Both the position numbers and the translations under genes were made by a program. From an uncultured bacterium (GTDB lineage: Bacteria > CSSED10-310 > CAZUFC01), in the NCBI GenBank assembly GCA_964619725.1, contig CAZUFC010000035.1:1-64000 (forward strand): DNA of 64,000 bases, read 5' to 3'. Below the pieces are notes generated by a model. The model saw only the letters and a list, made by a program, of their open reading frames with translations, was not told the origin of the DNA and made no database searches. Positions within the stretch are counted from its first letter, which is position 1. Each line of letters opens with the position of its first letter. This document shows, one piece after another, positions 41,893-61,507 of the stretch.

Positions 41893-42292
41893 TCACCCCG
41901 ATATGTCATCCATCGCCGGTTTGAATGCGAGTCAGGTCAGTCGGGCAACCCTTAGACGCATCCGGCGATGCTTTGGCATTCTTGATCCTATACGCAATCC
42001 GAGAAAAAACCAACATTATAATCGTGGATTCGGACTAATTCGTATTAGTTCAGATTATCGGGGATTTTCATTTTTCGGCGTGCGGCGATATGATTGTTTC
42101 TCAGATGATTTAAGATGCTTCCGGCTTGGTTGCATTTGTTGTGGAAAATACTTCATGTCGGTCAATTTACCGCTTTTTGCTCCAGTGTTTCCTCGTTCCT
42201 TGACTTCTGCCGCTGAATTGAATATTACAGAACGGGGAGGGTTTTGGGAGACAGTTTAATGTTTTTTTATGATGTATCTCAGGAGCTTGCGA

Positions 42293-45200: not shown

Positions 45201-45499
45201 ACCAGTTCCTGCTTACCACCGAAATAATCAATCCCGTGGACGAACTGCGCGTGGTTCAGGAATGGATCATTCTGGACGTAGGACAGTTGTATTTCTTCTT
45301 CCCCTCATGGAACACATTGCCCGATTATGAGCTCCTGCTCCTTCACGAGAATGAGCAGCTCGAACAAACCATACTGGACTTCATATGGCCCGAAGGAGCC
45401 GGCTCGATGCACGGAATACTTTTCTGGGCAGCCCTGCTCGACCCGGAAAATTTTGAACTCATTTCCAATATCGACTGGACTGAATTTTCTTATTATTAA
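42293..45499 (+). CDS. Secreted M14 zinc carboxypeptidase (carboxypeptidase T-like) with accessory modules, long Pro/Thr linker and a C-terminal domain
   Basis: HHARE (HxxE), [19 protein letters not shown] and VVEL. Signal peptide. ATG 42293 follows AGGAG. Confidence 0.9.
44625..45145 (+). repeat. Low-complexity Pro/Thr-rich coding repeat (TPT.TPT)n
   Basis: About 170 aa dominated by P and T within the M14 gene. Confidence 0.9.
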
Positions 45500-45811
45500 A
45501 GGCTCTTTCTATACTGCGAAGCTTTAAAGCAGAATGCATTGCGAAGCTTTTTGATCCCTGGCTGATTGCCGGCAATTCATCGGCCAATATCCGGTTTGTC
45601 TGATTAAAAGCGTCAGGAATTTCAGAATTACCCCTTGCCGAGGTCCAATCGTCAATGGTCAACGATAAACGACTGAGTTCATCTGCCATTGGAGTTTCGA
45701 TCAGGCAAACGCTTTATTAACGTAATGAGCGTTCAACATCCTATGATTCCCATTTGATCAATTGTAAAACTCAATATATACTTGCCTCCGAAGATGGGAG
45801 GAGAAACGGGT

Positions 45812-46621
45812 ATGGGCTCAGTTCCCGACGTATCGATCATCATAATCAGCACCAATGAAGCGCATGAACTGGAGTATTGCATTGATTCGCTTAAACGAAG
45901 AGATGGAAAAACGGATGTTGAGATCATCATTTTCGACAACGCTTCCTCCGATTCCACTACTGAGCTCGTGAAGGAACGTCTCTCCGAAGCCCGCCTTATC
46001 GTCAACGAAACGAAAACTGGTTTCGCGTCCAACAACAACCGTGGTATCGAAATGAGCAGAGGAAGATACATACTTCTGCTTAATCCAGACACGATAATAT
46101 CGCCGGAAACTTTCAGCGTAATGGTTGATTTCATGGACCGTAATTCCGATGTAGGCGCGGCCGCGTGCAAACTGGTGAATCCAGACGGCACTATTCAGCA
46201 TACCTGCAGACGGTTTCCCACTCCCGGCGCTGTTTTTTTCAGGTGGGCAGGAGTCGAAAAGTTTTTCCCGAATTCCCGAATTTTGAGCAGCTATTTAATG
46301 AAAAACGAAGACCATGACAGGCTGATCGAAACGGACTGGCTTTTGGGCGCTTTTCTGATGCTGCCCCGGAAAATAATAGATGAAGTCGGCCTGCTTGATA
46401 CCCGCTTCGATCCCCTTTACTATGAGGACATCGACTTGTGTTACAGGATAAAAAAACAGGGGTATCGCATCTGTTATTATCCGGAAACGTCAATTGTCCA
46501 TCTTTACAACAGGGAAAGCGCTGAGAGCATTTTCAATAAAATGACGTATATTCATTTCAGGAATATTATAAGGTTCTTCAGAAAACACAGATGGAGAAAA
46601 AATGAAGACTTTACTGATTAA
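45812..46621 (+). CDS. Glycosyltransferase family 2
   Basis: DVSIII, DNASSD, GFASNNN, LLNPD, GAFLM and YEDIDLC. RBS GGAGG before ATG 45812. Confidence 0.9.
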   Translation: MGSVPDVSIIIISTNEAHELEYCIDSLKRRDGKTDVEIIIFDNASSDSTTELVKERLSEARLIVNETKTGFASNNNRGIEMSRGRYILLLNPDTIISPETFSVMVDFMDRNSDVGAAACKLVNPDGTIQHTCRRFPTPGAVFFRWAGVEKFFPNSRILSSYLMKNEDHDRLIETDWLLGAFLMLPRKIIDEVGLLDTRFDPLYYEDIDLCYRIKKQGYRICYYPETSIVHLYNRESAESIFNKMTYIHFRNIIRFFRKHRWRKNEDFTD

Positions 46622-48086
46622 TTCCCCCTGGATACAGGAAGAGGAGCGGTACGGAGTGAAGGCAGGAGCGCGTTGGGCAAGTATCCGCAGAAAAAAGGAA
46701 ACCTTGATGTATTATCCTTTTCCTTTTTTTATGGCCTATGCGGCGGCTTATCTGAAAAGCAAAGGTCATGAGGCCAGGCTCAAAGATTCCGTCGCCGAAG
46801 GACAAACGGCCGAAGAAGCTCTGCAGTCCGTTGAGGAATATGGGCCCGCGATATGCGTTATCGAGACCTCAACGCCGTCCATATATCACGATCTTAAATT
46901 CGCAGAAAAAGTAAAACAGAACAGCGGCATTTTCGTCGCTTTGTGCGGTCCTCATGCTTCCGCGCTGCCTGAAGAAGTCCTGCAAAATTCTTATGTCGAT
47001 GCCGTGCTTTACGGCGAATATGATTACACGCTGGAGGAACTTGTCAGAAAACACCAGGAAACGAAGGGAGTTCCCGATCTTTCAAGTATCCAGGGACTCG
47101 CCTGGAAAGATAAAGCCGATGATGATCGAACAGTCGTGAATCCCCGGCGTCCTCTTATAAAAAACCTGGATACATTGCCTTATCCGGAAAGAGATGATGT
47201 GCCGTTGGAAAAATACACCGACCCAACATGCAAAAGATTTCCCAACGTTTGCATAATCGGAAGCCGGGGTTGCCCCAATCAGTGCATTTTCTGTCTTGAG
47301 CCTTCTGTTTTCTATGGGCCCAGGCCGGGCTTAAGATTACGGAAAGCTGAATTAGTGGTGGACGAAATTGAGTTTATCATGCAGAAATACCAGGTCGAAG
47401 AAATCTATTTCGATGATGCCTCCTTTTCACTCAATACCGATTGGTCGCGCCGGATCGCTGAGGAAATACTCAAGCGTAAACTGGACCTTTACTGGTCCTG
47501 CATGGCCGATTCGGGAATTGACCTGGATACCTTGCAATTAATGAAAAAATCGGGATGCCGCGGCGTAAAGTTCGGCGTCGAATCGGCAGATCCGGAAATA
47601 CTGAAAAAAGCGAAAAAACCTCTCAGCCTGGAAAACGTCAAAAAATTCGTCAGAGATTGTAAGACCGCCGGCATCTATACTCACGGCACTTTCATGTTCG
47701 GACTGCCGGGCGAAACGAGAGAATCCATCGAACAAACCATAGATTTCGCTTTTTCCCTTAAATTGACTACTGCCCAATTCTCCGTCGCCACACCCTTTCC
47801 GGGAACGCAATTCTATAAAATGGCCAAAGAAAACGGGTGGCTCATTACCGATGACTGGTCAAAATTCGAAGGCGCGGGTTCGCCCGTTATCGAATATCCC
47901 CAGTGCTCAAAGGAAGATATAATCAGAGGCGTGAGTTTAAGCAAAAAAAGGAAACTTCTGCGCGTGGCCTATAATCCCAGGATATTCGTGCAATACGTAA
48001 AAAAAATATATGACATGGAAGGCGTTGCCGGCGTGCTTAGAAACCTATGGGATAAAGGTTCATTCATCATCCGCTCAGGAAAATGA
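46602..48086 (+). CDS. Cobalamin-binding radical SAM protein
   Basis: N-terminal B12-binding-like domain (GPHAS, GEYD), SRGCPNQCIFC, GVES, FGLPGET and PFPGT. Overlaps the GT2 gene. Confidence 0.88.
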   Translation: MKTLLINSPWIQEEERYGVKAGARWASIRRKKETLMYYPFPFFMAYAAAYLKSKGHEARLKDSVAEGQTAEEALQSVEEYGPAICVIETSTPSIYHDLKFAEKVKQNSGIFVALCGPHASALPEEVLQNSYVDAVLYGEYDYTLEELVRKHQETKGVPDLSSIQGLAWKDKADDDRTVVNPRRPLIKNLDTLPYPERDDVPLEKYTDPTCKRFPNVCIIGSRGCPNQCIFCLEPSVFYGPRPGLRLRKAELVVDEIEFIMQKYQVEEIYFDDASFSLNTDWSRRIAEEILKRKLDLYWSCMADSGIDLDTLQLMKKSGCRGVKFGVESADPEILKKAKKPLSLENVKKFVRDCKTAGIYTHGTFMFGLPGETRESIEQTIDFAFSLKLTTAQFSVATPFPGTQFYKMAKENGWLITDDWSKFEGAGSPVIEYPQCSKEDIIRGVSLSKKRKLLRVAYNPRIFVQYVKKIYDMEGVAGVLRNLWDKGSFIIRSGK

Positions 48087-48197
48087 CCGACTGATGTCGT
48101 GCATTTCAGCAGGAAGGAAACGGTTAAGCATATCGTTAAAAACGTTTTGGCAAAAATGAACGGTTTTTTTTACCATATGTGAGAATCTCGAATCGTC

Positions 48198-48902
48198 ATG
48201 CTTTACGACAAAGAAAAAAAAGAAAAAGCGCTGAAAGACCTGGAAAGACGAGGGCTGGACTTGACGCACCGGCGAATTATCGAAATGACCGGGAAAAATA
48301 AAAAAGTCCTGGAAGTTGGATGCGCGACAGGTTATGTATCGAAGGAGCTCAAGAAGGCCGGATGTTCCATAACCGGCATAGAAATTGACCCGGAAGCGGC
48401 TAAGCAGGCTGAAACGCATTGCGATAAAGTCCTGACCGGCGATATTGAGACCGATATCGACTTTTCAGAAGTAGGAGAAAAATTCGATGTAATACTTATG
48501 GGCGACGTCCTGGAACATCTCAAAGACCCGGAAAGCATATTGAAAGAGCTCCGAAAAATGCTTCAACCCTTTGGATACATATTAGTCACATTGCCCAATG
48601 TAGCCTTTTACAAAATGAGATGGGACCTTCTTCTGGGGCGCTTCGAATACAGCGATTTCGGTTTGCTGGATCGCACTCATCTGCGCTTCTACACATTCTA
48701 TTCTTTTCACAGGTGCGCGGCCAGATGCGGTTTCCGTATCGCCGATTACAGGGTGAATGAAGGACGATTCCCGCTGGAAAATAAATTAAGAAAAGTAAAG
48801 CCTGTCGAGCGCTTTATAAGAAAAGTGAGTGAAGGGCTGGTCAAGAGATTCCCCAACCTGTTCGGATTTCATTTCATTTTTAAACTTGAACCTGATGAGT
48901 GA
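48198..48902 (+). CDS. Class I SAM-dependent methyltransferase (glycan-locus type)
   Basis: VLEVGCATG, DVLEHL.DP and GLLDRTHLRF. Confidence 0.88.
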   Translation: MLYDKEKKEKALKDLERRGLDLTHRRIIEMTGKNKKVLEVGCATGYVSKELKKAGCSITGIEIDPEAAKQAETHCDKVLTGDIETDIDFSEVGEKFDVILMGDVLEHLKDPESILKELRKMLQPFGYILVTLPNVAFYKMRWDLLLGRFEYSDFGLLDRTHLRFYTFYSFHRCAARCGFRIADYRVNEGRFPLENKLRKVKPVERFIRKVSEGLVKRFPNLFGFHFIFKLEPDE

Positions 48903-49684
48903 TCATGGATATTGAACGTAGAATACTGCAGAGTATCCTGCCGTCATGGTACTGGGACAGAATCGACGTAGAACGTCATACTATTGAGACTTTCATCAAA
49001 CGAATCGCTTCAGAGATTCCAGAAAACAGCCTGGTTCTGGATGCAGGCTCCGGCGAATGCCGCTATCGCCCCTATTTCGCTCACACGAGATATCTGACTG
49101 CAGACTTTGCACAGGGAGAAAACGCCTGGGATTACAGCGGACTGGATATGATAGCGGAGATCAATGAACTTCCCGTAAAAACGTCATCCGCAGATGCCGT
49201 CGTATGCACTCAAGTACTGGAACATGTGCCCGAACCAGGACAAACGCTGCAGGAACTTCACAGGGTCCTCAAACCGTCCGGCAGGCTTTACCTGACAGCT
49301 CCACAGGCATTCGGAGAACACCAGGAACCCTACGATTTCTTTCGATTCACCTCATTCGGACTGAAACACCTGATGAAAAAAGCAGGATTCAAAATAATAA
49401 GCGTGGAAGCGAGAGGCGGATTCTTCAAGTTTTTATCCGTAATGCTGATATTCTTTTACGACAGAGTTTTTCCGGATACTCATCCCCGTATCTTGAAGGC
49501 GCTGTTGCTGCCCTTTCGTATCCCCCTGGCTTTTTTCTTTCTATTAGTTTTACCTCCGCTGCTCTATGCGGCAGATCGCCTGGACAAAAGAAAAGATATA
49601 ACTCTGGGCTACCAGGCAATTGCTGAAAAATGGGGTGTGGAAAAATGGGGTGTGCCGGATGCCGGCGGTCCTATCGCAATTTAA
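48899..49684 (+). CDS. Class I SAM-dependent methyltransferase
   Basis: VLDAGSG, QVLEHVPEP, LKPSG and PYDFFRFT. GTGA overlap with the upstream gene. Confidence 0.85.
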   Translation: MIMDIERRILQSILPSWYWDRIDVERHTIETFIKRIASEIPENSLVLDAGSGECRYRPYFAHTRYLTADFAQGENAWDYSGLDMIAEINELPVKTSSADAVVCTQVLEHVPEPGQTLQELHRVLKPSGRLYLTAPQAFGEHQEPYDFFRFTSFGLKHLMKKAGFKIISVEARGGFFKFLSVMLIFFYDRVFPDTHPRILKALLLPFRIPLAFFFLLVLPPLLYAADRLDKRKDITLGYQAIAEKWGVEKWGVPDAGGPIAI

Positions 49685-50134
49685 TGGTTTGCGAAGGGCT
49701 CTGACCCCGTTATGGATGGTTGCTGGAGGCTGATGCCGGATAGCGGATGATTTGTTTTAAAGCGTTTCCGCAGGGCTCTGACGCTGTTTCTTTTCCCTGA
49801 CCCTGTTTCTTTTCCGGATACTCATCCCCGAACATTGAAGGCCCTGTTGCTGCCCTTGCGCATCCCCCTGGCTTTTTTCTTTCTGTTAGTTGTTCCTCCG
49901 TTGCTGTATGGTATGCGGCCGATCGTTTGGACAAAAGAAGAGATATAACCCTGGGTTACCAGGCAATTGCAGAAAAATGAGGTGGCCCGGAAGCTGGCGG
50001 GCCTATCGTAATTTCAATGGTTTGCGATGGTTTGCGAAGGGCTCTGACCCCGTTCCGGATGGTTACTGGAGGCTGATGCCGGATAGCGGATGATTTGTTT
50101 TGAAGCGTTTCCGCAGGGCTCTGACCCTGTTTCT
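49468..50134 (+). repeat. Diverged direct duplication (~325 bp x2) containing four REP-like copies
   Basis: 49468-49791 aligns with 49810-50134. REP-like motifs at 49688, 49765, 50031 and 50108. Confidence 0.92.
49811..49980 (+). pseudogene. Frameshifted remnant of the 3' end of the upstream methyltransferase gene
   Basis: Translates as FPDTHPRTLKALLLPLRIPLAFFFLLVVPPLLY, then a GTATG duplication shifts the frame, then AADRLDKRRDITLGYQAIAEK-stop. Confidence 0.8.
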
Positions 50135-50246
50135 GTTTCTGAACCTGATACGGGATCATTTTTTTATGGGTTGACTGATGCCGGGAAGCCTTTTAGACTT
50201 TGGCTTGCGAGTTTTATTTGCTCTTTTTTTTCTCAGGAGAAGTCTA

Positions 50247-51110
50247 TTGACGTTATGTTTTTTCGTTTCCGATCTGCACGGGAACCTCAGCAAATATGAT
50301 AAGCTTTTCAGCGCTATTGAAATGGAAAGTCCATCGGGAGTCTTCATCGGTGGTGACATTCTTCCTGGGGGTTCTTTTTATTCAAAAATTCCGTCACCTG
50401 GAGAAGGGGATTTTTTGAACGCATTCCTGGCGTCGAGGTTCGGGCGACTCCGTGAGAAATTAGGCGCTCGTTATCCGGAAGTTTTCATTATATTGGGTAA
50501 TGACGATGAGAGGGTTGCGGAAGCGGGTTTGCTTGAAGGTTCGACAAAGGGGTTATGGGTTTACGCTCACAATAGAAAATCCGTTTTTGAAGCCTGGCAG
50601 GTTTACGGATATTCCTATGTTCCTCCGACGCCGTTTCGGTTGAAGGACTGGGAGCGGTATGACGTATCGCGTTATGTAGATCCGGGTTCGATATCGCCTG
50701 AGGAAGGCGTCCGGACGGTGGCTGTGTCGAAGAGTGAGAAACGGTGGTCGACGATACAAAAGGACCTGGAGTTGCTGAAAGCTAAAGATGATCTGACGGA
50801 TGCGGTTTTCCTTTTTCATACGCCGCCCTATAAAACGGCGCTGGACAGAGCGGCCCTGGACGGTCAAATGATCGATCATGTTCCCCTGGATGTTCATATC
50901 GGAAGTATTGCCGTTCGCCGTTTTATCGAGAAAGAACAGCCGTTGCTGACATTGCACGGCCATGTCCACGAGTCCACGCGGTTGACCGGCAATTGGAAGG
51001 ATCGAATAGGGCGGACCTGGGCTTTCAACGCAGCTCATGACGGCAAAGAACTGTCGATAATTAAATTCGATCTTTGCCGCCCCGAAAACGCCGAACGAAT
51101 ACTGCTCTGA
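50247..51110 (+). CDS. Metallophosphoesterase (calcineurin-like, Icc-related)
   Basis: SDLHG, GGD, LGNDD, FHTPP and LHGHVHE. TTG start at 50247 after AGGAG; the ORF track starts at 50178. Confidence 0.85.
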   Translation: MTLCFFVSDLHGNLSKYDKLFSAIEMESPSGVFIGGDILPGGSFYSKIPSPGEGDFLNAFLASRFGRLREKLGARYPEVFIILGNDDERVAEAGLLEGSTKGLWVYAHNRKSVFEAWQVYGYSYVPPTPFRLKDWERYDVSRYVDPGSISPEEGVRTVAVSKSEKRWSTIQKDLELLKAKDDLTDAVFLFHTPPYKTALDRAALDGQMIDHVPLDVHIGSIAVRRFIEKEQPLLTLHGHVHESTRLTGNWKDRIGRTWAFNAAHDGKELSIIKFDLCRPENAERILL

Positions 51111-51299
51111 TGATGATCATACATGAAAAGATGCAAGGCTGACGGGATGATCCGTTCTTAAATTATCATGATCCGCAGAATCAGCGTTATCCCTGGGTCA
51201 AGAGAAGGCTGAATTATTTTAAAGGGTCAAGGACCTGTTGAAACGTTTCAAAGCAGATTACATGACCTTCTGCCTCCGCTCTTCGCCATCCGGCATCCC

Positions 51300-54200
51300 T
51301 TACCGATTGATTATCTCTTCAAGCGTTTTCTTTTCCACATAGGAATTTCTTTTTATGTCAGAATCCTGTTTTTTGAGTTCCAGGGGGCGGGCGGGGTCTG
51401 TGACTGCGCTGATTTTAGAGGCGAAACTCGTTTTCTTTTTGATATCTTCGTCCGTGACGATGTGTAAATCGATCAAGCCGTCTGTTCTGTATCCGGTACG
51501 AAGATAATTTATTTCGCTCAGACTGGCGCTCCACCCCTCAATCCAATGCAGAAGGTTTTTGCGCTGATCCTCAGTACCCTCAAAATGAACGATCAGGTCG
51601 ATATCGCTGGCCGGTCCGGCAGTAGCATTCTTGGCGCTTCCGAATATATACAATCCTTTAACGCCGAATCTTTCCGGGTCAAGGCGTGAGGCGAGAATTT
51701 CCGCCATGCTCAGTCGCCATTTCCAATGATCGTCCATGGGGGCTTTCGTTTCAATTGTCGCTCCTTGCAGGTCTTTAACCTCAGCGGCGGTCGGCGGCGT
51801 CAGAAATCCGACCGCCTTCTCCAGTTCAGCATTCATCAGAATCCTCAACACATTGCCCTGTTCGACGCCCGGCACGTCAATGACTCTCAATGTCTCCGCC
51901 AACCGGGAATATTCCGGAAGTATATCTCCTAAAATAGACTGTTTTCGCGTGAGGAAATGTTCGTTGAATACCACGCCGTTCTGATCGGGATAAAGCGGCA
52001 GGTACCTGATGGAAGCTTCCACCAGGTCCTGGAAAAAATGAGTGCCGAAAGAGAGCTCGGGGATATAATTCCCCTTCTGCTTGGCTATTTCAATCAGCAT
52101 TGCGGTATTACTGAAATCAGAATAATTAACGTTGACGCCTAATTTAATGTCTCCACGGCTGCCCCATCTTCCGGGACCCATCATGATGAAACGCCTTTTA
52201 GGAAGAATTCTGTTCAGCTTGCTGATGGCGCGGCCGACCTCTTTCATATCGTCAAGATTAGTCAATGATTGATACTTTTCCGGGTCTACGTAAATGATAT
52301 GGGAGATATCCGGCACTTTACCGTTTGATACGAATTTATTAGCGGAAAAAACAATTCGATTTTCGGGTATGTTTTTCGGAATAGGCGAAGCGATGTCCTC
52401 GCTTGAATAGCTCTGCGGTCTGCATTGCAGAAGATAAAAATCCGTTCCGTCGCATGCGAATTCAATATCGACCGGAGAATGGATGCCTTCTTTCAGGACA
52501 CTTATGATCGCGTGGACCTTTTTCAGCAGATTCGTTTCCTTGGCCAGTCCTTCGAAAGTAAAAACGAGCGATTCGTTCTCATAATCTATCAAACCTCCCG
52601 GTCTGGTGAATCTTCTGTCTTTGTAAACAGAAACCAGGCGCCTGAGTTTCGGGAACTCATTTCCGTATTTTTTTATGAATTCGTCAGCATCTACCGTTCC
52701 GAAAGAATTGGTTTCCAGGTCGATAACGTCAAGTTTGCGCGGCGAATAACGGAGTATTTCATCTGGCGTTACATTGACGCGCAGGTTCGGCTGTCCCGGC
52801 GCCATTAAAACCGGATAGTCGTCGCTCAATCTGTCTACGGCTCTCGTCCCCAAACCGGGTACCATACGTATCAAGCCATCTTCCCGCTTTATCCGCGGAG
52901 ACCACCGGAACTCATTATTACTGAAGGCAACCCCTGCGAACGACGGAAGAAAATATTTGCCTATCTTTGTCCCAACAACCTCCTGGATCAGTATGCCCAT
53001 TTCCTCATGAAAATCCAGAAGACCCCTTTCCGTCCGATATTGAATAGGATCAGGGCTGAAAATAGATGCGTATACTTCCGAAATCGCATCCATTAATTCT
53101 TCCAGACGTTTCTTTTTAGGACCCTGGTTGGCCAGAAACAAACTCTTGTACTTCCCCGAAAAGGCCGTTCCCAAATTGTCCTCTAATAAACTCGAACTGC
53201 GCACTATCAGAGGACTATTTTCAAACTCATCCAGCGCAATCGTCAATCCCTTGACTATCTCAGGAGGAAACGGCGAATTTTTGAAAAGTTGAATGATCTG
53301 CGGATATTCCAGCCGAATTTGATCTATCTCCTTGTATTTTTGTTCAGTTATATCGTCAAGATTGTTGTAGCTTATGAAATAAGTGATCGCATCAGAGGCT
53401 ATATACCACGTTTTAGGAATTTTGATGTTTTTCAGCAGCTCGTTCTCGTCTTCCTTCTTTTTCAAAATTTTGGATGCCAGGAATAACCCCGAACTCTTTC
53501 CCCCCAATTTTCCCCGGCTGTCCGGAGGGTAAACGATGCTGTTGACTATATCGTAAAAATCACTGACTTCAATGTACTGCTTCGCAATATTTATGTAATC
53601 CAGCCGATCGAAAAAGAACCGGCGGATCAACGCCACGCGTAAACCGATTTCCGAAGAGGGGGCAATTTCCGGAGTCAAATGATGATATCGTGATACAGCA
53701 GCGATTATTTCAGACAAAGAGCTGCTGGGCGAACTTAATATTTTAACTAAAAAATTGGATTTATCCTCCTGAATCCATTTCTGAATCAAATTCATTATTT
53801 CCTGGCCGCTGAGATATTCCTCCGTCAATTCATAAATCTCGGCAGTGTAAGAAAGAATGTTTTCAATCGGTTGCCGTTGACTGGGCCGATTGCAATCATG
53901 CTGCTTGGAGTCGACGAATCGGTTTTCTATTCCGCCTAATTTCTGCATCAGGCTGATCGCCTTCTTGTTACCGCTCCAAGACAAATAATTCATCATTTTA
54001 CGCACTATCTGAAGGAACAATTTCTGATCGGTCAAACGCAACATATCCAGGATTGCACGCCAATCTCCCATCGGCTCGGCTTTTATCGTTCTCTTCCCTT
54101 TTTCCCATTCCTTGATTATTTCCTGATTTTTAAGGTAATAAATGGCATTTCCCAGACGCTCCGCTACAGTATCGATTAATTTCCTTTCCTCCTGTAAGAA

Positions 54201-54536
54201 TACGCCGTCGTCATCCTCGCCTATTTCTTCAATATAGTAAACGTTTATCGAGCCGACGCGGGAGCCTTGAACGAAAATACCTGCGGATTGAACAAGATTT
54301 GTTTCCTGAAAATCCCTGGAAGTATATTCTGCGCCTTCATAAGTTATTTTAACCCTGCAAATTTCAGGATATTGCCATCCCGGAGGAATCGCCTCTATAA
54401 TTTTGTGGAAAATGTTTTCCAGGTCTAAATCCGTATCATTCAACACATCCTCGACTTTATAGAGGCAGTTTAATTCCTTGGCCCTTTCCTGAAGGTTTTT
54501 AATTATATTCTTGCCGGGTTCTCCTTTGTTTTTCAT
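51300..54536 (-). CDS. PEP synthase/PPDK N-terminal (ATP-grasp)-domain protein with N-terminal GAF-like and C-terminal nucleotidyltransferase domains
   Basis: LGGKSSGL, VRSSSLLED...FSGKY, DIEFA...LQCRP and GRWG...GTHFF. N-terminal LQERAKELNCLY...PPGWQYPE. C-terminal IFGSAKNATAGPASDIDL (Pol-beta NTase GS...DxD). Confidence 0.8.
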   Translation of the reverse strand: MKNKGEPGKNIIKNLQERAKELNCLYKVEDVLNDTDLDLENIFHKIIEAIPPGWQYPEICRVKITYEGAEYTSRDFQETNLVQSAGIFVQGSRVGSINVYYIEEIGEDDDGVFLQEERKLIDTVAERLGNAIYYLKNQEIIKEWEKGKRTIKAEPMGDWRAILDMLRLTDQKLFLQIVRKMMNYLSWSGNKKAISLMQKLGGIENRFVDSKQHDCNRPSQRQPIENILSYTAEIYELTEEYLSGQEIMNLIQKWIQEDKSNFLVKILSSPSSSLSEIIAAVSRYHHLTPEIAPSSEIGLRVALIRRFFFDRLDYINIAKQYIEVSDFYDIVNSIVYPPDSRGKLGGKSSGLFLASKILKKKEDENELLKNIKIPKTWYIASDAITYFISYNNLDDITEQKYKEIDQIRLEYPQIIQLFKNSPFPPEIVKGLTIALDEFENSPLIVRSSSLLEDNLGTAFSGKYKSLFLANQGPKKKRLEELMDAISEVYASIFSPDPIQYRTERGLLDFHEEMGILIQEVVGTKIGKYFLPSFAGVAFSNNEFRWSPRIKREDGLIRMVPGLGTRAVDRLSDDYPVLMAPGQPNLRVNVTPDEILRYSPRKLDVIDLETNSFGTVDADEFIKKYGNEFPKLRRLVSVYKDRRFTRPGGLIDYENESLVFTFEGLAKETNLLKKVHAIISVLKEGIHSPVDIEFACDGTDFYLLQCRPQSYSSEDIASPIPKNIPENRIVFSANKFVSNGKVPDISHIIYVDPEKYQSLTNLDDMKEVGRAISKLNRILPKRRFIMMGPGRWGSRGDIKLGVNVNYSDFSNTAMLIEIAKQKGNYIPELSFGTHFFQDLVEASIRYLPLYPDQNGVVFNEHFLTRKQSILGDILPEYSRLAETLRVIDVPGVEQGNVLRILMNAELEKAVGFLTPPTAAEVKDLQGATIETKAPMDDHWKWRLSMAEILASRLDPERFGVKGLYIFGSAKNATAGPASDIDLIVHFEGTEDQRKNLLHWIEGWSASLSEINYLRTGYRTDGLIDLHIVTDEDIKKKTSFASKISAVTDPARPLELKKQDSDIKRNSYVEKKTLEEIINR

Positions 54537-56347
54537 TTTAATATAACACCTTTTCCCGTTTTGCCGTCGACTTTAATGGTCAAAGCCGACTCAGTTTTAA
54601 CGTGTTTTACGAAACGTAAATTTTCGGAAATTTTCAAATTATTCAACCAATCCCAGTCAATCATACGGCCGTTATGCAGATTGATGGAAAAATAAACCGT
54701 CTGAAAACAAGATAAATTGTGAAAAAAATGCGATCCTTGACTTAATTCGACCCTCATTTTCGAAAAGGAAGCCTCAATGATGGCTTTAGCCCCGCAAATT
54801 TGACCCCAATTTGCCGGTATGCCGAGCCAGGGATCGGAACTGCCCCATCGCCCGAATCCAATCAGAAGATAAGGGGAGCCGGATTGAACCAGTTTTCTGT
54901 TGATGTTTTCGATTTCCAGCGCCATGCGAGGAGTATCTTTGGCCTCGAATGTTTCAGGTTTGACGAAAACGATATCTTTAATCGAAGAAATAATGCCGTT
55001 GCCCATCACCTGGTCTGATGCGGTTAAAACATCAGCGCCTGTCATTTCTTGTTCGGTTATGACGACGTTCTCATGCGAAACGACCATAGGTCGAACCTGA
55101 AGAAAACCGAATTTAACCGGAGTTTTAAGTTTTCGATCAAAACTCAGAGCGAATTCCACCTCTACTTCTGCGTCCATAACATCTTCGCATATCGGCAAAA
55201 GTTCTTTTATCAGCTTGTTCAACGGAATCTGCTCATGCTCCAGAACAGGAGAAAAATTCACCACCTTCGCTCCGGGCCGTCCCTTACCGGGCATTATTCT
55301 GTCCGATTGCGGATCATAAGTACCCGCAATATGATCCAACGTTCCGTCGTAATCGGCGTCTCTCAATCCCAACTGCACCAGATATTCTGTTTCTTTCATG
55401 GGATCATACGCCGGCGGTTTTCCCATGTTGATCGCCCAGAATTTCTTCTGGGTCATCTGCAACATATCTCTTGTAGAACTGAAAGGCGGTCCGGAACGGG
55501 GAAAAGCCGGGGAATAGCTCCAGACAATATCGCCATCGACTATGGTCTTGCCCAGTCCCAGAGCCAGGTCCACTACCCCGTCCTCAGGCCGCGCTTTTCC
55601 CGATCTGTAAAAATTATATGATCGGGCTACTCCTGAAATATCAGGATAGAATCTGTCGCCTCGTTGCTTGCCCACAACGTCCTGGATGATTACCGCCATC
55701 TTCTCGTTCTCAATTTCATTCCCCGTTCCTTGAAAATAACCCTTGGCCGCGTTGAAAAATGTCGATGCATAGATGAATTTTATCGCTTCAACCAGTCGAA
55801 GGAATCGCGTGTCTGCAGAAGGTTGATTACCGGGCAGCATTTTTGTTCCGTAAATTCCCGCAAACGGTTCGAATTTAGCATCCTCCAGCAAACTGGAAGA
55901 CCTGACGGCTAACGGACTGCGCTTCACGCGGGCTATCGTCAATAAATCCCCTACCAGTTCTGCAGGCAGTTCCGTTTTTAAAAAATGATAGGCTGTTCGT
56001 TCGTCCTCCTTCACAGAATAAGCAGTTTCATACAGATCGTTCATCCTCATGAAAGAATCAAAGTGATCGGTCGCTATGACCGTTAAACGGGGTATCTCTA
56101 CTTCAATTCCGGGAAATCTTTGCTTGCTTATACGGCTTTCTACCGCTTCCCATATACGCGCTAACCCCGATGCCTTGCCCCCTATCTCACCATGACCGAT
56201 GACAGTGAATTCATTACCGCTCTCCATGAGATTTCTGCTGAAATAATTTATTCTCTTCGGAGTTATTTTGGAAGAAGGCTTGCTCATCTCGGCATCACCG
56301 ACGTTTGATTTTTTTTTCATTTCCGAGCGAATCAGAGGTGCAATCAT
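54533..56347 (-). CDS. PEP synthase/PPDK N-terminal (ATP-grasp)-domain protein lacking the pyruvate-binding barrel
   Basis: IGGKASGL, AVRSSSLLED...FAGIY, EVEFA...LQVRPM and GRWGSSDPWLG...SQGSHFF. The start is uncertain (alternatives near 56320 or 56287). ATGA overlap with the downstream paralog. Confidence 0.8.
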   Translation of the reverse strand: MIAPLIRSEMKKKSNVGDAEMSKPSSKITPKRINYFSRNLMESGNEFTVIGHGEIGGKASGLARIWEAVESRISKQRFPGIEVEIPRLTVIATDHFDSFMRMNDLYETAYSVKEDERTAYHFLKTELPAELVGDLLTIARVKRSPLAVRSSSLLEDAKFEPFAGIYGTKMLPGNQPSADTRFLRLVEAIKFIYASTFFNAAKGYFQGTGNEIENEKMAVIIQDVVGKQRGDRFYPDISGVARSYNFYRSGKARPEDGVVDLALGLGKTIVDGDIVWSYSPAFPRSGPPFSSTRDMLQMTQKKFWAINMGKPPAYDPMKETEYLVQLGLRDADYDGTLDHIAGTYDPQSDRIMPGKGRPGAKVVNFSPVLEHEQIPLNKLIKELLPICEDVMDAEVEVEFALSFDRKLKTPVKFGFLQVRPMVVSHENVVITEQEMTGADVLTASDQVMGNGIISSIKDIVFVKPETFEAKDTPRMALEIENINRKLVQSGSPYLLIGFGRWGSSDPWLGIPANWGQICGAKAIIEASFSKMRVELSQGSHFFHNLSCFQTVYFSINLHNGRMIDWDWLNNLKISENLRFVKHVKTESALTIKVDGKTGKGVILK

Positions 56348-56594
56348 CCCAACTTTCTTAAGAATACATGATTTTCCGATTTTTCCAAACTTTCTTTTCC
56401 AATGTTTTCAGTACGCAACGAAATTCAAAAGAAAACATTCGGCTACGCGGCTGACATAAGCGATGAAATATCTGTGGATAGCGAATATGTCAACCGACCG
56501 GATTGACGCAAAAATCTATTTGTTTCGAACCCGTCGCCAGCCTGGTAAACAACCGGTATTTTAGTGAAAGTTCCCGGAAATTATTTGTAGCGTC

Positions 56595-56617
56595 TGCGAT
56601 ACCGACACCGACCCTGA
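56595..56617. repeat. Short 6-bp-periodic repeat, second copy
   Basis: TG CGATAC CGACAC CGACCC TGA, similar to 31931-31957. Confidence 0.4.
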
Positions 56618-56881
56618 TATCCGCCACAAACAGCCCGTAATCAACTAACAGCGTTGTCTTTGACGAAGGGGTCTCGCCGGGTTTTCACGGCGAATTTTAA
56701 CCGGATTCTGCTCCGTCCCGACATTTCGGATGCTGAATGTTCGACGATCCGTATCAAGAATCTGTCTCTTGTGACTTATGCCGGTAGGATTCCAAGTTCA
56801 GACGAACCTAAAAGGCGGTTCTTTCAGAGTCTGTGTTCAAGCATTAACCGTCGAACATCCGGCATCCGTTCTATGAAGAAT

Positions 56882-58168
56882 TTATACCCAGCTTCGATCC
56901 TTACAAGCTTGAGCAACGCGGTTGATGGCGATTACGTAGGCAGCGTCGCGCATGAAGAGTTTACGCTTTTCCGCCAATTCATGAGTATCGATAAAGGCTG
57001 CAGTCATGATAGAGTCGAGTTTTCCTAATACTTCGTCCTTCTCCCAGTAGTAGTTCATATTGCACTGAACCTGTTCGAAATAGCTGCACGTCACTCCGCC
57101 TGCGTTGGCCAAGAAGTCCGGAATCACAAAAATATCGCGTTGCTTGATAACTTTATCGGCTTCCGGGGTCGTAGGACCGTTGGCGCCTTCAGCTATTATT
57201 TTTACGCGTTTATGAATCTTGTCGACGTTAGCGGCCGTAATCTGGTTTTCCAGAGCACAGGGCAACAAAATATCCGCTTCTTGTTCAATCCATGCGTCTC
57301 CAGGGAGTACATCATATCCGATTTCTTTCGCTTTTTCTTTCTCGACGCCGCCGAATTTGTCGGTGATCCTCAGCAATTCCTCTATATCTATGCCGTCCAG
57401 CTTGCGGTAACAATACGCTGTTTCATCTTTCTGGTCCCAGCAGGAAACGCATATGACTTTTCCGCCCAGTTGATTCATTAATTTAACGGCATACTGTGAG
57501 ACATTGCCGAACCCCTGAACGGCAGTGATCGTATCCGCAGGTCGAATGCCCATTACCTTCAGCGCCTCTCTTACCGTGTAAATCAATCCGAATCCCGTCG
57601 CTTCAGTTCTGCCCAGCGAACCTCCCAGTCCCACAGGCTTGCCCGTTATGAAACCGGGATACTTAGCCCCGTGAAGAGCTTCATACTCATCCAGCATCCA
57701 TAACATGTGCTGGGCATTGGTCATAACGTCCGGAGCCGGAACGTCATTCAGCGGACCCACATTCTTAGACAACTGCCGGACCCAACCGCGACAGACCAAC
57801 TCCTGTTCACGATCGCTCAAATTATGAGGATCGCATATCACTCCGCCTTTGCCGCCGCCTAACGGTATATTGACCAGCGCGCACTTCCAGGTCATCCACA
57901 TCGATAGCGCTCTGACTGTATCCACCGTTTCCTGAGGATGAAAGCGTATACCGCCTTTGCACGGTCCCAGAGCATCATTGTGCTGAATCCGAAATCCCCT
58001 GAATACCTTGAACGTACCGTCGTCCATCCTTACCGGAATGTTGAAATGAAATTCTCGCATCGGGTATCTCAGTAAATCTCTCGTCGCAATGTCCAAGCCC
58101 AAATACTCGGCTACGGAATCAAACTGCGCCTGCGCCATATCGAAAGGATTAAAAGATTTGTCAGTCAT
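56882..58168 (-). CDS. gdhA: Glutamate dehydrogenase (Glu/Leu/Phe/Val dehydrogenase family)
   Basis: GPCKGGIRFHP, GGGKGG, DVPAPD, ITGKP...GGSLGR.EATG, QGFGNV, EGANGP and NAGGV..SYFE. Confidence 0.95.
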   Translation of the reverse strand: MTDKSFNPFDMAQAQFDSVAEYLGLDIATRDLLRYPMREFHFNIPVRMDDGTFKVFRGFRIQHNDALGPCKGGIRFHPQETVDTVRALSMWMTWKCALVNIPLGGGKGGVICDPHNLSDREQELVCRGWVRQLSKNVGPLNDVPAPDVMTNAQHMLWMLDEYEALHGAKYPGFITGKPVGLGGSLGRTEATGFGLIYTVREALKVMGIRPADTITAVQGFGNVSQYAVKLMNQLGGKVICVSCWDQKDETAYCYRKLDGIDIEELLRITDKFGGVEKEKAKEIGYDVLPGDAWIEQEADILLPCALENQITAANVDKIHKRVKIIAEGANGPTTPEADKVIKQRDIFVIPDFLANAGGVTCSYFEQVQCNMNYYWEKDEVLGKLDSIMTAAFIDTHELAEKRKLFMRDAAYVIAINRVAQACKDRSWV

Positions 58169-58246
58169 CCTGAAATAACCTCCTTCTGAGGAAATTTGAA
58201 CTGTTTAAATCGCCGGCTCTTTTACGCTTCGTGGAATCCAATGGTG

Positions 58247-58963
58247 TCACCTCATACGCCGAATGGATCGCTTGTTCTGCATCGGCCTTTGCTTCTCGTT
58301 GCTCTGACGCGCAAAGTAGGCGACTTTCTCTAAATACATGTTTACGTCCAACTGCTCTATACATACCCAGGATGGAACTTTCAACAGCGTCGGCGCAAAA
58401 TTGATGATCCCCTTTATTCCCGAAGTCGTCATCATATCCGCTATCTGCTGTGCCGATTCTGCCGGTACCGTTATTATACCGATGCTTATGCCCCGCTTCT
58501 TCACGATCTCGCTGAAACGATCCACAGGATAAGTCCGACAACCGAATAACGTCTGATTCGTCTTGGCCGGATTCCTGTCGAATGCCGCCGCCAATTTGAT
58601 GTTGGGACTGCTCTTTACAAAATATGCCAGTATCGCTCGACCTAAATTGCCTATCCCGCACAAAGACGCTCTCTGCTCTGCTTCTCCGTCCAAAAATCCG
58701 CTGATGTCGCCGATTATGTCGCCTATCAAATATCCCTTAGCAGGACTACCCGCTATTCCAAGCAGCATCAAATCCCGACGTACCTGGGCCGCATTGCAAT
58801 GAGCCATCTCCGCCAACTGATGCGAAAATATGTGCGTACGATGCTCCGGTCCCACTTCCTTCAGAATCCTTCGGTAACGTATTATTCTCTCAATCGTCTT
58901 CTCAGAAATCAATGCGCTTTCCTTGCCGTCGAAAATCACCTCATGAGCTGTAATTCGTTTCAC
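58247..58963 (-). CDS. rex: Redox-sensing transcriptional repressor Rex
   Basis: TIER...YRR.L, S..LA...QVRRDL...G..G...GY, GIGNLGRA, VPAESAQ and INFAP. Start uncertain. Confidence 0.9.
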   Translation of the reverse strand: MKRITAHEVIFDGKESALISEKTIERIIRYRRILKEVGPEHRTHIFSHQLAEMAHCNAAQVRRDLMLLGIAGSPAKGYLIGDIIGDISGFLDGEAEQRASLCGIGNLGRAILAYFVKSSPNIKLAAAFDRNPAKTNQTLFGCRTYPVDRFSEIVKKRGISIGIITVPAESAQQIADMMTTSGIKGIINFAPTLLKVPSWVCIEQLDVNMYLEKVAYFARQSNEKQRPMQNKRSIRRMR

Positions 58964-59157
58964 GCTGTGAATTATTCAACAGCGTTTACAGAGGGACTAT
59001 ATAAACCCTGGCTATTGGTTTGTCAAGCTTATTTTGTTTTTTTTTCGCCCTTCTTCAAATTTTTATCGGCAATGATCACAATATGCGTGATTCGGTCGAT
59101 AATTTTACATCCTGCATCGCTTAAGGATGTCACGGAAAAGAGAAGAAGGAATAGTCA

Positions 59158-59190
59158 AAAAGCGGGCCGTATCCCCATCGGCCCGCTTTT
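59158..59190 (-). terminator. Rho-independent terminator downstream of the S1 protease gene (possibly bidirectional)
   Basis: AAAAGCGGGCCG-9 nt-CGGCCCGCTTTT with flanking A/T runs. A second hairpin (GGCGCCTGT...ACAGGCGCC) lies at 59219-59268. Confidence 0.75.
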
Positions 59191-59281
59191 CAGTGGGATT
59201 TACAGGAAAAATCCAGGCGGCGCCTGTTCCGGGATCGTTTTCTGGGAACTTACCAGGAGACAGGCGCCGAATTGGGTTGGG

Positions 59282-61507
59282 TCATTTACAAGTTCTGGAG
59301 CCTGGTTTACCGAGGCATTTATTTGAGCAGCATTCCGAGTCATAGACGCAGGGGGAATCAGCGGGCAGGCAAGAGCATGCTGGGTCGGCGCTGCAATCGC
59401 CGTCGTCGCAATCGGCGTAGCCGTCGCAGTCTTCATCGATGCCGTCGGAGCAGTTTGTTTCAATGGTCGGCGGATACCCGCAGTCATCGGGGCAGGAGCA
59501 CTGGTCTTCGCCTTCGTCGCATATGCCGTCTCCGCAGAAGGGCGGGGGACCGCAGTCTTCTTCGCATGAGTAGGAGTCTTCATCGCCGTTGCAGATGCCA
59601 TCGCCGCAATATGGAGCGGGTCCGCAATCGACAGCGCAATTGTAAGAATCTTCGCTTCCTTCGCAGATACCGTCGCCGCAGCAGGAACCGACAGCAGGGA
59701 TATCTGAACAGGTGTTGCCGCCAGACGAACATCGCGGATCATCGCAGCCGACGGGATTATGACCGTCGCCGTCTCCGCAGCAATAACGGAAATCCGGTTT
59801 GCCGGTCTGAACGCCGTTGCAGTCCTGGGGACATGAGGCGCAATCTTCGCCGTCAGCCGTTTCGCAGATATTGTTTCCGCATACGGCTCCCGAACCGCTG
59901 AAACAGTCGTTGGGACAATTGCTGCAATCTTCTCCGGATTCGCAAACGCCGTCGTTATCGCAGATGCAATCGGGGCTGCCGTCGCAATCGCCGTCTTCGC
60001 AGTCCGTTAATCCGTCGCAATCTTCATCAACTCCGTCGCTGCAGTTCGTTTCAATGGACGGCGGATATCCGCAATCTTCCGGACAATTGCATTCGTCTTC
60101 GTCCGGATCACAGAATCCGTCTCCGCAGTAATGACTTCCGGGGACCAAGGTATTAAGGCTCGTCACGCCGGTGTTGCCGGGATCAAGCCAATCTTTAAGC
60201 CGGCTGGAGGATGAACCGCCGCCCTCCCAGGATACGGAGAGCCTGCCGTACCAATCGGATTCGTCATTGTCGCATGCCGCATAACCTCCGTGAAGCTGTC
60301 CGACAACATGATGATTCTGATCGAATAACGGCGAACCTGACGATCCGGGCTCAGTAGTTCCGGCATCCCAATCAACGACTCTTATATGCGTTCCGTCTCC
60401 GGGTATCGTATATCCCAAATAACTCGTGGTTTCCACAGCGTCATATTCGAAACTGATGCTCTTCTCATCGCAACTCGGATGATGGATGGCCACCGCGCTC
60501 GATGCATCGTTGCCGCTGCGGCTCCATCCCGCGTAGGCTACGCTCCAGGCGGGGTTCGGCATTTCATCGAGTTCCACCAGGGTAAAGTCCGAATCATAAT
60601 AGGCGGCTCTCCAATAGGAACCGCTTTGCCATTCAGATAGGGAGCCGCCTCCCTGCTGGCCGCACGAAGGACTTTCAAAATTCCAGTAAGCCACCAGCGA
60701 TGCCGCATTATTCGATGTGATGCCGCAGTGATTAGCCGTCATGAAATAGGGCGTCTGATCCTCATTTGTATTGTTGACCATGAATCCCGTGCAAAATAAT
60801 GAGCCGCCTGTTGAAATTACGGCGACAGATGCTATCTCGTCACGCCAGGCATCACCCTCAGGACATATTACATCTATATTACACCAGCCGGACTTCAATG
60901 GGTCGTCCTTGAAAAAGCCGCGATAGCCGACATTGACGGACGTCAGTTCCAGCTCTAATTCCTTCCTTTGAGAAGCAGGAACCGTCACTTCCAATATCAG
61001 TTCATCCGATTCGACGACCGGAGTCCATAATTCGCCGTGATCAGCGTTATCGCGGGCCGTAAAAGGACGGAGCGTCGTGCTGTAATCAGGCGAATAGATA
61101 AAGAGACGTCCTCCTGAAGGCATATAATAACCGGAGAAACCCAGATTCAAAGATATCGCTCCCTTTGATGCAATTCGCTGCCTCCATACCATGGTGTCCT
61201 TATCTATTATCTCCCACAATCCGTTGTTGTCCGGAGTTATGTAAACTTCATTCGGAATTGCGAAACGAGGAGCTAATCCCATCGCTTCACGCTCCATGTC
61301 CTCAAGCGCTGTCGAATTCAAATCAACGAAAGGAACCTCGCGCAAAGGCAATTCATCCGTTCCTCTGAGTATCTCAGAACGCAACTGTGACGTCGGCACA
61401 GAACGTCCCAGCCGCCCGACATTATCGCTCGCAAACGTCGAACTCATTAATAATACAATTAATATGGCCGGCATTAGTCTAAAAATATGAAATCCTGTTT
61501 TATTCAT
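59282..61507 (-). CDS. Secreted lysyl-endopeptidase-like S1 serine protease with a Cys/Asp-rich repeat tail
   Basis: Signal peptide and propeptide. CNIDVIC, TANHC (His), SDFTLVEL (Asp) and TEPGSSGSP (Ser). About 280 aa of CGDG.C...E....CP.DC and CSDG.DEDCDG..DC repeats. Confidence 0.88.
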   Translation of the reverse strand: MNKTGFHIFRLMPAILIVLLMSSTFASDNVGRLGRSVPTSQLRSEILRGTDELPLREVPFVDLNSTALEDMEREAMGLAPRFAIPNEVYITPDNNGLWEIIDKDTMVWRQRIASKGAISLNLGFSGYYMPSGGRLFIYSPDYSTTLRPFTARDNADHGELWTPVVESDELILEVTVPASQRKELELELTSVNVGYRGFFKDDPLKSGWCNIDVICPEGDAWRDEIASVAVISTGGSLFCTGFMVNNTNEDQTPYFMTANHCGITSNNAASLVAYWNFESPSCGQQGGGSLSEWQSGSYWRAAYYDSDFTLVELDEMPNPAWSVAYAGWSRSGNDASSAVAIHHPSCDEKSISFEYDAVETTSYLGYTIPGDGTHIRVVDWDAGTTEPGSSGSPLFDQNHHVVGQLHGGYAACDNDESDWYGRLSVSWEGGGSSSSRLKDWLDPGNTGVTSLNTLVPGSHYCGDGFCDPDEDECNCPEDCGYPPSIETNCSDGVDEDCDGLTDCEDGDCDGSPDCICDNDGVCESGEDCSNCPNDCFSGSGAVCGNNICETADGEDCASCPQDCNGVQTGKPDFRYCCGDGDGHNPVGCDDPRCSSGGNTCSDIPAVGSCCGDGICEGSEDSYNCAVDCGPAPYCGDGICNGDEDSYSCEEDCGPPPFCGDGICDEGEDQCSCPDDCGYPPTIETNCSDGIDEDCDGYADCDDGDCSADPACSCLPADSPCVYDSECCSNKCLGKPGSRTCK

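Follow-up and report, generated by a model that had tools for sequence, protein, structure and literature searches.

We analysed a window of 64,000 nucleotides from an uncultured bacterium of the CSSED10-310 lineage (contig CAZUFC010000035.1), in which two dikinase-like proteins, here named A and B, are encoded next to a glutamate dehydrogenase (GDH). By the sequence-based tests that we ran, A and B are not phosphoenolpyruvate (PEP) synthases, pyruvate phosphate dikinases (PPDK) or rifampin phosphotransferases (RPH). We propose, tentatively and as the leading possibility, that A and B together with their associated parts may form a sensor-controlled covalent switch acting on GDH.

Proteins A and B

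The genes rex (58247-58963), gdh (56882-58168), B (54533-56347) and A (51300-54536) all lie on the minus strand, and the stop codon of B and the start codon of A share the ATGA at 54533-54536, just as the first-pass annotation of this DNA had described. The gdh product (428 residues; PF00208 and PF02812) is a family II GDH and, judging from the tree and co-occurrence data below, the presumed target. Protein B, which counts 604 residues from the first ATG (a later ATG may be the true start), is composed of a short leader, an ATP-grasp domain and a histidine domain; it has no sensor, and these parts fill the chain, so that a separate acceptor-binding domain is absent. Protein A (1078 residues) consists of a GAF domain, a helical region that received no fold assignment, an ATP-grasp domain, a histidine domain and a nucleotidyltransferase, into which the chain runs on at the point where B ends. 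The earlier description of the four genes was correct as far as it went, but it overlooked the GAF domain, the nucleotidyltransferase and a metallophosphoesterase encoded convergently to A.

As had been suggested, the two proteins are paralogous, with 28% identity across 527 aligned residues (E 3e-38). The ATP-grasp domain of B (~residues 50-425; 55073-56200, minus strand) matched PF01326 with E 3e-32, and its GGK, RSSxLED, Q, E and QxR motifs are intact. The corresponding domain of A (~residues 335-710; 52407-53534, minus strand) matched with E 3.7e-58. In a VIA-align fold comparison of the model of A (117 sequences, mean pLDDT 83.7), the closest structure to this domain was the rifampin phosphotransferase 5hv1 (Z 25.5, root-mean-square deviation (rmsd) 3.0, 300 aligned residues), and HpeI scored Z 18.3. 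Neither protein matched PF00391 (E 0.1) or PF02896, the pyruvate-binding barrel. Both keep GRWG and S-x-G-[ST]-HFF, with the histidine at H540 in B and H833 in A, and the canonical GGxT[SC]HAA motif is absent from the two proteins. A phmmer search of PDB sequences with B and with the metallophosphoesterase gave nothing useful.

After removal of four duplicate loci, 205 full cores were aligned. The GGK lysine, the RSS arginine, the GRWG arginine and the HFF histidine were present in 205/205. Five other ATP-grasp residues (E, D, Q, E, Q) were kept in 204/205 and the LQxR arginine in 193. The residue two positions before the histidine, which is threonine in PEP synthase and PPDK, was glycine in all 205 cores.

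Many homologues are named 'pyruvate, water dikinase' in databases and PF01326 is present, so that A and B might be thought split or truncated PEP synthase or PPDK subunits with the barrel supplied in trans. We consider this hardly tenable. The NCBIfam dikinase models scored 59 bits, far under their cut-offs of 598-740 bits, GGxT[SC]HAA is lacking, and no barrel gene is conserved in the 160 family loci surveyed. The genome also has separate genes elsewhere for a full-length PEP-synthase-like protein of 798 residues and a PPDK-like protein of 888 residues (named by length, PF00391 and motifs), and the earlier claim that A and B are not PEP synthases was upheld. The NCBIfam RPH model gave 33 bits against a cut-off of 999.

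The notion that A and B are partners gained support from in-frame B-A fusions of 1629-1648 residues with both histidines, of which there were 8 among the 120 matches listed. Long open reading frames (ORFs) in loci L047, L052, L053 and L054, considered as further fusions, contained one core only and were rejected as upstream-extension artefacts. No fusion above 1887 residues (A with GDH or with the phosphoesterase) was scored, which is weak evidence.

Family types and linkage to gdh

A search of 351 genomes with a core profile revealed the family in 83, with 128 gene matches when weak and partial ones are counted; the genomes searched were at least 85% complete and spread over families, ten being from the same phylum, and the count is not a prevalence estimate. 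A FastTree of the cores separated a B/C branch, in which C-type members carry receiver domains and B-type members occur with or without them, from an A/D branch. The A type has a GAF domain and a nucleotidyltransferase, or is a short form without both, and the D type has a different N-terminus. The N-terminal modules thus vary across the family (GAF, receiver, none, others), and such interchangeable modules fit a regulator.

The conserved linkage to gdh, which the first-pass annotation had put forward, was confirmed by neighbourhood statistics. A family member lay within 10 kb of a PF02812 gene in 46 of the 83 genomes, compared with ~1.8 expected from genome size. Tandem A/B pairs had gdh within 10 kb in 18/22 cases, and the other four hit a contig end on the gdh side. 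We give no P value for the linkage because kin are not independent. In the best 80 of at least 631 named GTDB loci, a set biased to B-like members, gdh occurred at 56, including 17/17 of those with a nucleotidyltransferase-bearing A; the loci came from more than 10 phyla, and the titles include Ignavibacteriota, Acidobacteriota, Bacteroidota, Planctomycetota, Chloroflexota, Gemmatimonadota, Chrysiogenota, Thermoplasmatota and others. Members other than the A type also adjoin gdh (48 of 108 non-A loci). Another 40 single-member loci, 32 of them away from gdh, had mostly neighbours with no relation to nitrogen, but three adjoined gltBD, and amt, carA, NAD synthase, NrpR and aminotransferases were also encountered.

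A second locus of the same genome (G000:C51:50509-55083; L021:10510-15084) carries an NADP-type gdh (454 residues) followed by a 1005-residue, receiver-bearing C-type member. In consequence, both GDHs of the window's genome have an adjoining family gene.

GDH clade and His115

In a FastTree of 147 complete GDH sequences of at least 380 residues, the window's GDH fell into a 45-row clade (SH-like support 95); apart from the sequences of genomes G009 and G010, all its members stem from loci or genomes that bear A or B. The window's GDH type was present in 26 of the 27 genomes with an A-type gene, and in the 27th it was cut by a contig end. The family was present in 32/36 genomes with this GDH type, and an A-type gene in 25/27 genomes whose GDH is at least 68% identical.

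The clade-specific residue His115 (GGGKGGVICDPH; codon 57824-57826, minus strand) is a candidate acceptor or docking site. It lies eight residues past the GGGK lysine and was histidine in 43/43 clade rows and in three more sequences from A- or B-bearing genomes. The position is proline in G009 and G010, which are 92-93% complete and in which the family was not found, and alanine, lysine, arginine or serine in seven distant relatives from genomes without the family or with C and D types only. The two same-phylum GDHs (G009:C29:66954-68234 and G010:C1:439948-441225; L181 and L182) belong to the linked clade and carry H115P, T150S, Q153K and N222K (GFGKV); they are a natural control for experiments. 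Thr84 and Thr389 were also considered as clade-specific sites and rejected, as both are kept in G009 and G010 and in the top PDB match, 1gtm.

The histidine domain

The histidine domain of B (residues 431-604; 54536-55057, minus strand) has a predicted swivelling beta/beta/alpha-like fold and contains GRWG and SQGSHFF, with the His540 codon at 54728-54730. That of A (~residues 722-915; 51792-52373, minus strand) contains SFGTHFF, with the His833 codon at 52038-52040. The domain of B was modelled alone (124 sequences, pLDDT 91.5). Among 48,161 chains, a DRTGG domain ranked first (Z 7.4), and ranks 2-6 were swivel domains (Z 6.3-7.0, rmsd 2.9-4.0, 105-116 aligned residues), namely RPH (7.0), the PPDK carrier (6.8), maize PPDK (6.8), a pyruvate kinase tail (6.8) and enzyme I (6.3); all Z scores were below 8. 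The top five Foldseek matches were all PPDK, with a best E of 8e-3. In the model, the histidine begins the helix at 109-117; the canonical dikinase histidine also opens a helix. The invariance of the residue and the predicted swivel-like fold, at moderate Z, support the earlier suggestion that the HFF histidine is a candidate phospho-carrier. The profile of the domain retrieved 1726 clusters (50% identity) at E up to 1e-10.

GAF domain, nucleotidyltransferase and metallophosphoesterase

Protein A begins with a GAF-fold domain (residues 11-145; 54102-54506, minus strand), for which VIA-align gave Z 12.9 to 3cit (rmsd 2.2, 123 aligned residues), with many other GAF domains tied. At the other end lies a Pol-beta-type nucleotidyltransferase (~residues 937-1055; 51372-51728, minus strand; PF01909, E 1.7e-7, and PF18765). 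It shows the pattern hG[GS]x9-13DhD, the consensus of the Pol-beta nucleotidyltransferase superfamily, and a third aspartate. Of 157 sequences, G966 was kept in 157, S967 and D978 in 156 each, D1023 in 155 and D980 in 154; the L131 domain is degenerate. A motif in L111 was discarded as a chance match. The NCBIfam model of the MntA adenylyltransferase, a type VII antitoxin (NF047752), scored 22 bits, below its cut-off of 60; a HEPN partner was not specifically searched for.

The convergent metallophosphoesterase (50178-51110, plus strand; PF00149) is calcineurin-like and a candidate eraser. Its conserved part starts from ~residue 27 onward, and the metal motifs DLHG32, GGD58, GNDD107, FHTPP213 and GHVHE261 are intact and conserved in 25 sequences, with aspartate in place of the usual histidine of GNHD. 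The gene occurred at 24 of the 38 loci with a nucleotidyltransferase-bearing A, at 0/14 with other A-like genes and at 1/108 others. Within the 351 genomes, the nucleotidyltransferase was found in 19 and the phosphoesterase clade in 16, both in 15; four had the transferase only (one degenerate) and one the phosphoesterase only (1/332 without the transferase). The clade was defined at E up to 1e-70, which left out two weaker matches (1e-35 to 1e-37), and it was found in none of the other 64 family genomes. The phosphoesterase follows the transferase and not the dikinase core, a pattern expected of a writer/eraser or a synthase/hydrolase pair.

We also observed a phosphoesterase-clade member (61% identity) at G161:C4:32147-32977, in a genome that yielded no family member and no nucleotidyltransferase. 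The GAF subtype of A is also present in five other proteins whose genes adjoin gdh or family members, four of them histidine kinases and one a Crp-type regulator (L111:9687-10835, L123:14393-15694, L124:3305-4411, L128:1902-3410 and L139:12142-14274), hinting at a ligand common to them and A.

Comparison with known systems

VadK (Rv1127c) of mycobacteria is described as a PPDK-derived protein with ATP-binding and histidine domains only, which autophosphorylates its histidine with ATP and Mg2+, interacts with metabolic enzymes and is proposed to regulate them (PMC13400623). On that description, B resembles VadK in having only the ATP-grasp and histidine domains and no pyruvate/PEP or acceptor domain. 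In architecture, the A/B system differs from it in the loss of the canonical histidine motif, the tandem pair, the added GAF and nucleotidyltransferase domains and the association with GDH and a phosphoesterase.

RPH (5hv1) and the two-component dikinases HpeHI, CreHI and phenylphosphate synthase share with A and B the closest solved ATP-grasp domains (Z 25.5 and 18.3), a swivel match (Z 7.0) and the lack of a TIM barrel. In HpeHI and RPH, the acceptor is bound by a domain of its own and the motif is T/SxxGGxxxH (PMC12167813). In contrast, A and B have neither a large small-molecule-binding domain nor that motif, and whereas HpeHI, as described there, distributes the ATP-grasp and histidine domains over different chains, A and B each carry both. 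With PEP synthase and PPDK, the two proteins have in common a PF01326 ATP-grasp domain with intact motifs followed by a histidine domain of probably similar fold, but they lack the pyruvate barrel and score far under the family cut-offs. The threonine two residues before the histidine is the regulatory site of these enzymes (PMC12167813), and this regulatory position is the one occupied by glycine in the A/B family.

The swivel histidine domains of enzyme I of the phosphotransferase system (PTS) and of EI-Ntr were matched as well (Z 6.3 and 5.4), and the N-terminal GAF domain of EI-Ntr (3trc, Z 10.9) was one among many matches to that of A. Enzyme I passes phosphate to a histidine of the protein HPr. 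Unlike A and B, which have an ATP-grasp domain, it takes the phosphate from PEP via a TIM barrel, and the family loci showed no conserved HPr-like gene. GlnD and GlnE form the nucleotidylation cascade of nitrogen control, with PII or glutamine synthetase as targets and with transferase and remover joined in a single chain. The present system likewise ties a Pol-beta nucleotidyltransferase and a removing activity to an ammonium-handling enzyme. It is set apart by a minimal transferase joined to a dikinase, by a calcineurin-like protein of its own as the candidate eraser, and by GDH as the linked enzyme. The annotated recurrent neighbours of the family loci included no cluster of PII or glnA genes. 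A and B are best filed with the swivel-histidine dikinases, with a mode of action that would be VadK- or enzyme I-like.

By its title, a 1996 report by Baggio and Morrison concerns a trans-acting gene downstream of gdhA, and a fragment of ~3 kb reportedly restored activity. In the genus of our Bacteroides record (L091), all 31 genomes had one C-type gene of ~3 kb (one split). It lay within 10 kb of a gdh in 24; in eight it followed the NADP-type gdh at that distance or less, and in four within 500 bp; most of the C-type genes are divergent from the other gdh. This C-type gene fits the title of the 1996 report and may be the gene meant there. The report (PMID 8955404) is cited in PMC4539542. 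Searches of open-licence PMC and bioRxiv texts found no description of an A/B/GDH system.

Proposed mechanism and alternative readings

The ATP-grasp motifs are intact and the histidine is invariant in both A and B. From the fold and from dikinase chemistry, we would expect ATP to be split to AMP and phosphate with phosphorylation of the histidine. Since B has no acceptor-binding domain, the acceptor would be a protein in trans, as with enzyme I and HPr. Linkage and co-inheritance point to the adjacent GDH clade as that acceptor, with His115 as the first candidate. A metabolite signal would be read by the GAF domain of A. The co-occurrence data suggest that the nucleotidyltransferase of A could add a nucleoside monophosphate (NMP) to a member of the module and that the metallophosphoesterase could remove it, a putative second control layer with GlnD/GlnE-like logic and different parts. 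A complete two-layer circuit, in which the dikinases would phosphorylate a GDH histidine (His115 here) in a PTS-like manner and the GAF-controlled nucleotidyltransferase and the phosphoesterase would write and erase the NMP that sets the direction, would be a GDH counterpart of GlnD/PII/GlnE, with the single-gene form as the trans-acting GdhA activator of gut Bacteroides. Taken as a whole, this extended scheme is speculative and we regard it as doubtful.

Several observations weigh against a covalent switch on GDH. In 37 of the 83 family genomes, no member lies within 10 kb of gdh (some owing to contig breaks), the family is tied to three unlike GDH groups, and linkage by itself does not distinguish a modifying protein from a metabolic partner. 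Position 115 is lysine or arginine in the C- and D-linked GDHs, so that His115 cannot be the general acceptor; the correlation of this residue with the family amounts to one gain and one loss, G009 and G010 are also altered in widely conserved residues (T150S, Q153K, N222K), and 4 of 25 unlinked GDHs have histidine in the column. For the histidine domain, the fold-match Z scores are below 8, with a DRTGG domain as the best match, and hhalign against 27 canonical swivel segments found no similarity, the same result as for three unrelated controls, in a comparison that had no positive control. We must also note that no tyrosine, threonine or serine in GDH, B or A separated nucleotidyltransferase-positive from -negative systems when 32 GDHs were set against 6, 35 B/C cores against 7 and 34 A cores against 8.

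The linkage data also speak for a control of GDH without its modification. Whether A/B bind GDH as allosteric subunits, or signal to gdh expression, would then be set by autophosphorylation, by nucleotidylation or by a nucleotide messenger that the nucleotidyltransferase produces and the phosphoesterase breaks down. The lack of a candidate NMP site agrees with this, as do the sharing of the GAF subtype of A with histidine kinases and a Crp-type regulator beside gdh (five loci), the conserved Asp and Lys of a C-type receiver domain, and the link shown between VadK and its partners, which is an interaction (PMC13400623). Yet an invariant histidine domain calls for an acceptor, and neither A nor B contains a receiver domain; the nucleotidyltransferase, of only ~120 residues, is minimal and does not resemble known cyclases; and most members lack it and still stand beside gdh, as at the 48 of 108 non-A loci. 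We judge such non-covalent control possible but unlikely. A metabolic role seems to us somewhat less probable still. A and B would in that case join GDH in converting a small molecule (2-oxoglutarate, glutamate or a reaction intermediate), for example in ATP-driven ammonium assimilation or glutamate use. All characterised relatives from the fold search (RPH, HpeI, PEP synthase, PPDK) phosphorylate small molecules (PMC12167813). The histidine domain, of 174 residues, exceeds the 105-116 aligned with canonical swivels, the invariant GRWG arginine could hold a carboxylate, and gltBD and amt are among the neighbours. However, B lacks the separate acceptor-binding domain of RPH and HpeH, swappable sensors, a fused nucleotidyltransferase and a tracked phosphoesterase would be unusual for a catalytic step, and the window's GDH type is retained in 4 of 36 genomes that yielded no family member.

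The first-pass annotation had also proposed NADH/NAD+ control of the module by Rex. The 238-residue Rex repressor scored 182.5 bits against the NCBIfam Rex subfamily cut-off of 126; its gene is co-oriented, lies 78 bp upstream of gdh and is the sole Rex match in the genome, as would suit a redox unit formed by rex, gdh, B and A and jointly repressed by Rex. Against such a unit, rex occurred at 1 of the 160 family loci, the window's own, and a Rex palindrome with up to three mismatches had two matches in the window, compared with 3.9 by chance, both distant from the module genes. The proposal was thus not sustained, and we consider a Rex-controlled unit very improbable. Rex is not a conserved part of the module, although it may regulate gdh in the host organism.

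If it holds, the covalent switch would make A and B a new, protein-directed class of dikinases and the module a new circuit of nitrogen control; the two-layer circuit as a whole, should it exist, would be a type of nitrogen control not described before. The residues to test are His540 of B, His833 and Asp978/980 of A, and His115 of GDH. The single-gene C type in Bacteroides offers a cultured model in the group of the old report of a trans-acting gene. The family is mostly labelled PEP synthase in databases, which would distort metabolic models of anaerobes.

Local features and neighbouring genes

The gap of about 535 bp after gdh, which had been taken to leave co-transcription uncertain, is real (534 bp, 56348-56881) but local. 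The distance from the gdh stop to the GGK codon of B was 27-240 nucleotides in 20 of the 21 other gdh-B loci and 700 in the window, so that the window's gap is atypical. Promoter and terminator scans were at chance level (13 vs 12.1 and 10 vs 9.2), and Rfam gave no match across 49500-59500.

Additional observations concern the other family types. The N-terminus of C-type members (e.g. L021:12070-13390) comprises two receiver-like domains, by alignment and by eye. The acidic residues are missing from the first (SS, ITM); ED, Asp and Lys are retained in the second, which could therefore accept phosphate. In three same-phylum loci without a nearby gdh (L025:3100-4473, L033:12998-14368 and L034:12061-13434), a 457-residue protein with a weak match, below cut-off, to the circularly permuted ATP-grasp family PF14403 is encoded upstream of the C-type gene. 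A pair of genes for a MurU-like nucleotidyltransferase and a phosphotransferase/RapZ-like protein lies near the C-type genes of L096, L109, L110 and L121. D-type N-termini (e.g. L159:6435-9056 and L036:8000-10609) gave no Pfam match and start, by eye, like a KaiC/RecA-type ATPase (STGxxGLDxxxxGL); several D-type genes adjoin gltBD, amt or NrpR.

On the far side of rex, a gene at 59282-61507 (minus strand) encodes a trypsin-like protease (PF13365) that looks secreted and has a long tail of Cys/Asp-rich repeats. The plus-strand ORFs at 45782-49684, by eye a glycosyltransferase, a radical-SAM-like protein and two methyltransferase-like proteins, are probably a glycan-modification cluster with no relation to the module. 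The product of the gene at 42269-45499 (plus strand) is large, looks by eye like a carboxypeptidase at its N-terminus and contains a long region of Thr/Pro repeats; proteins resembling it flank the module in same-phylum genomes.

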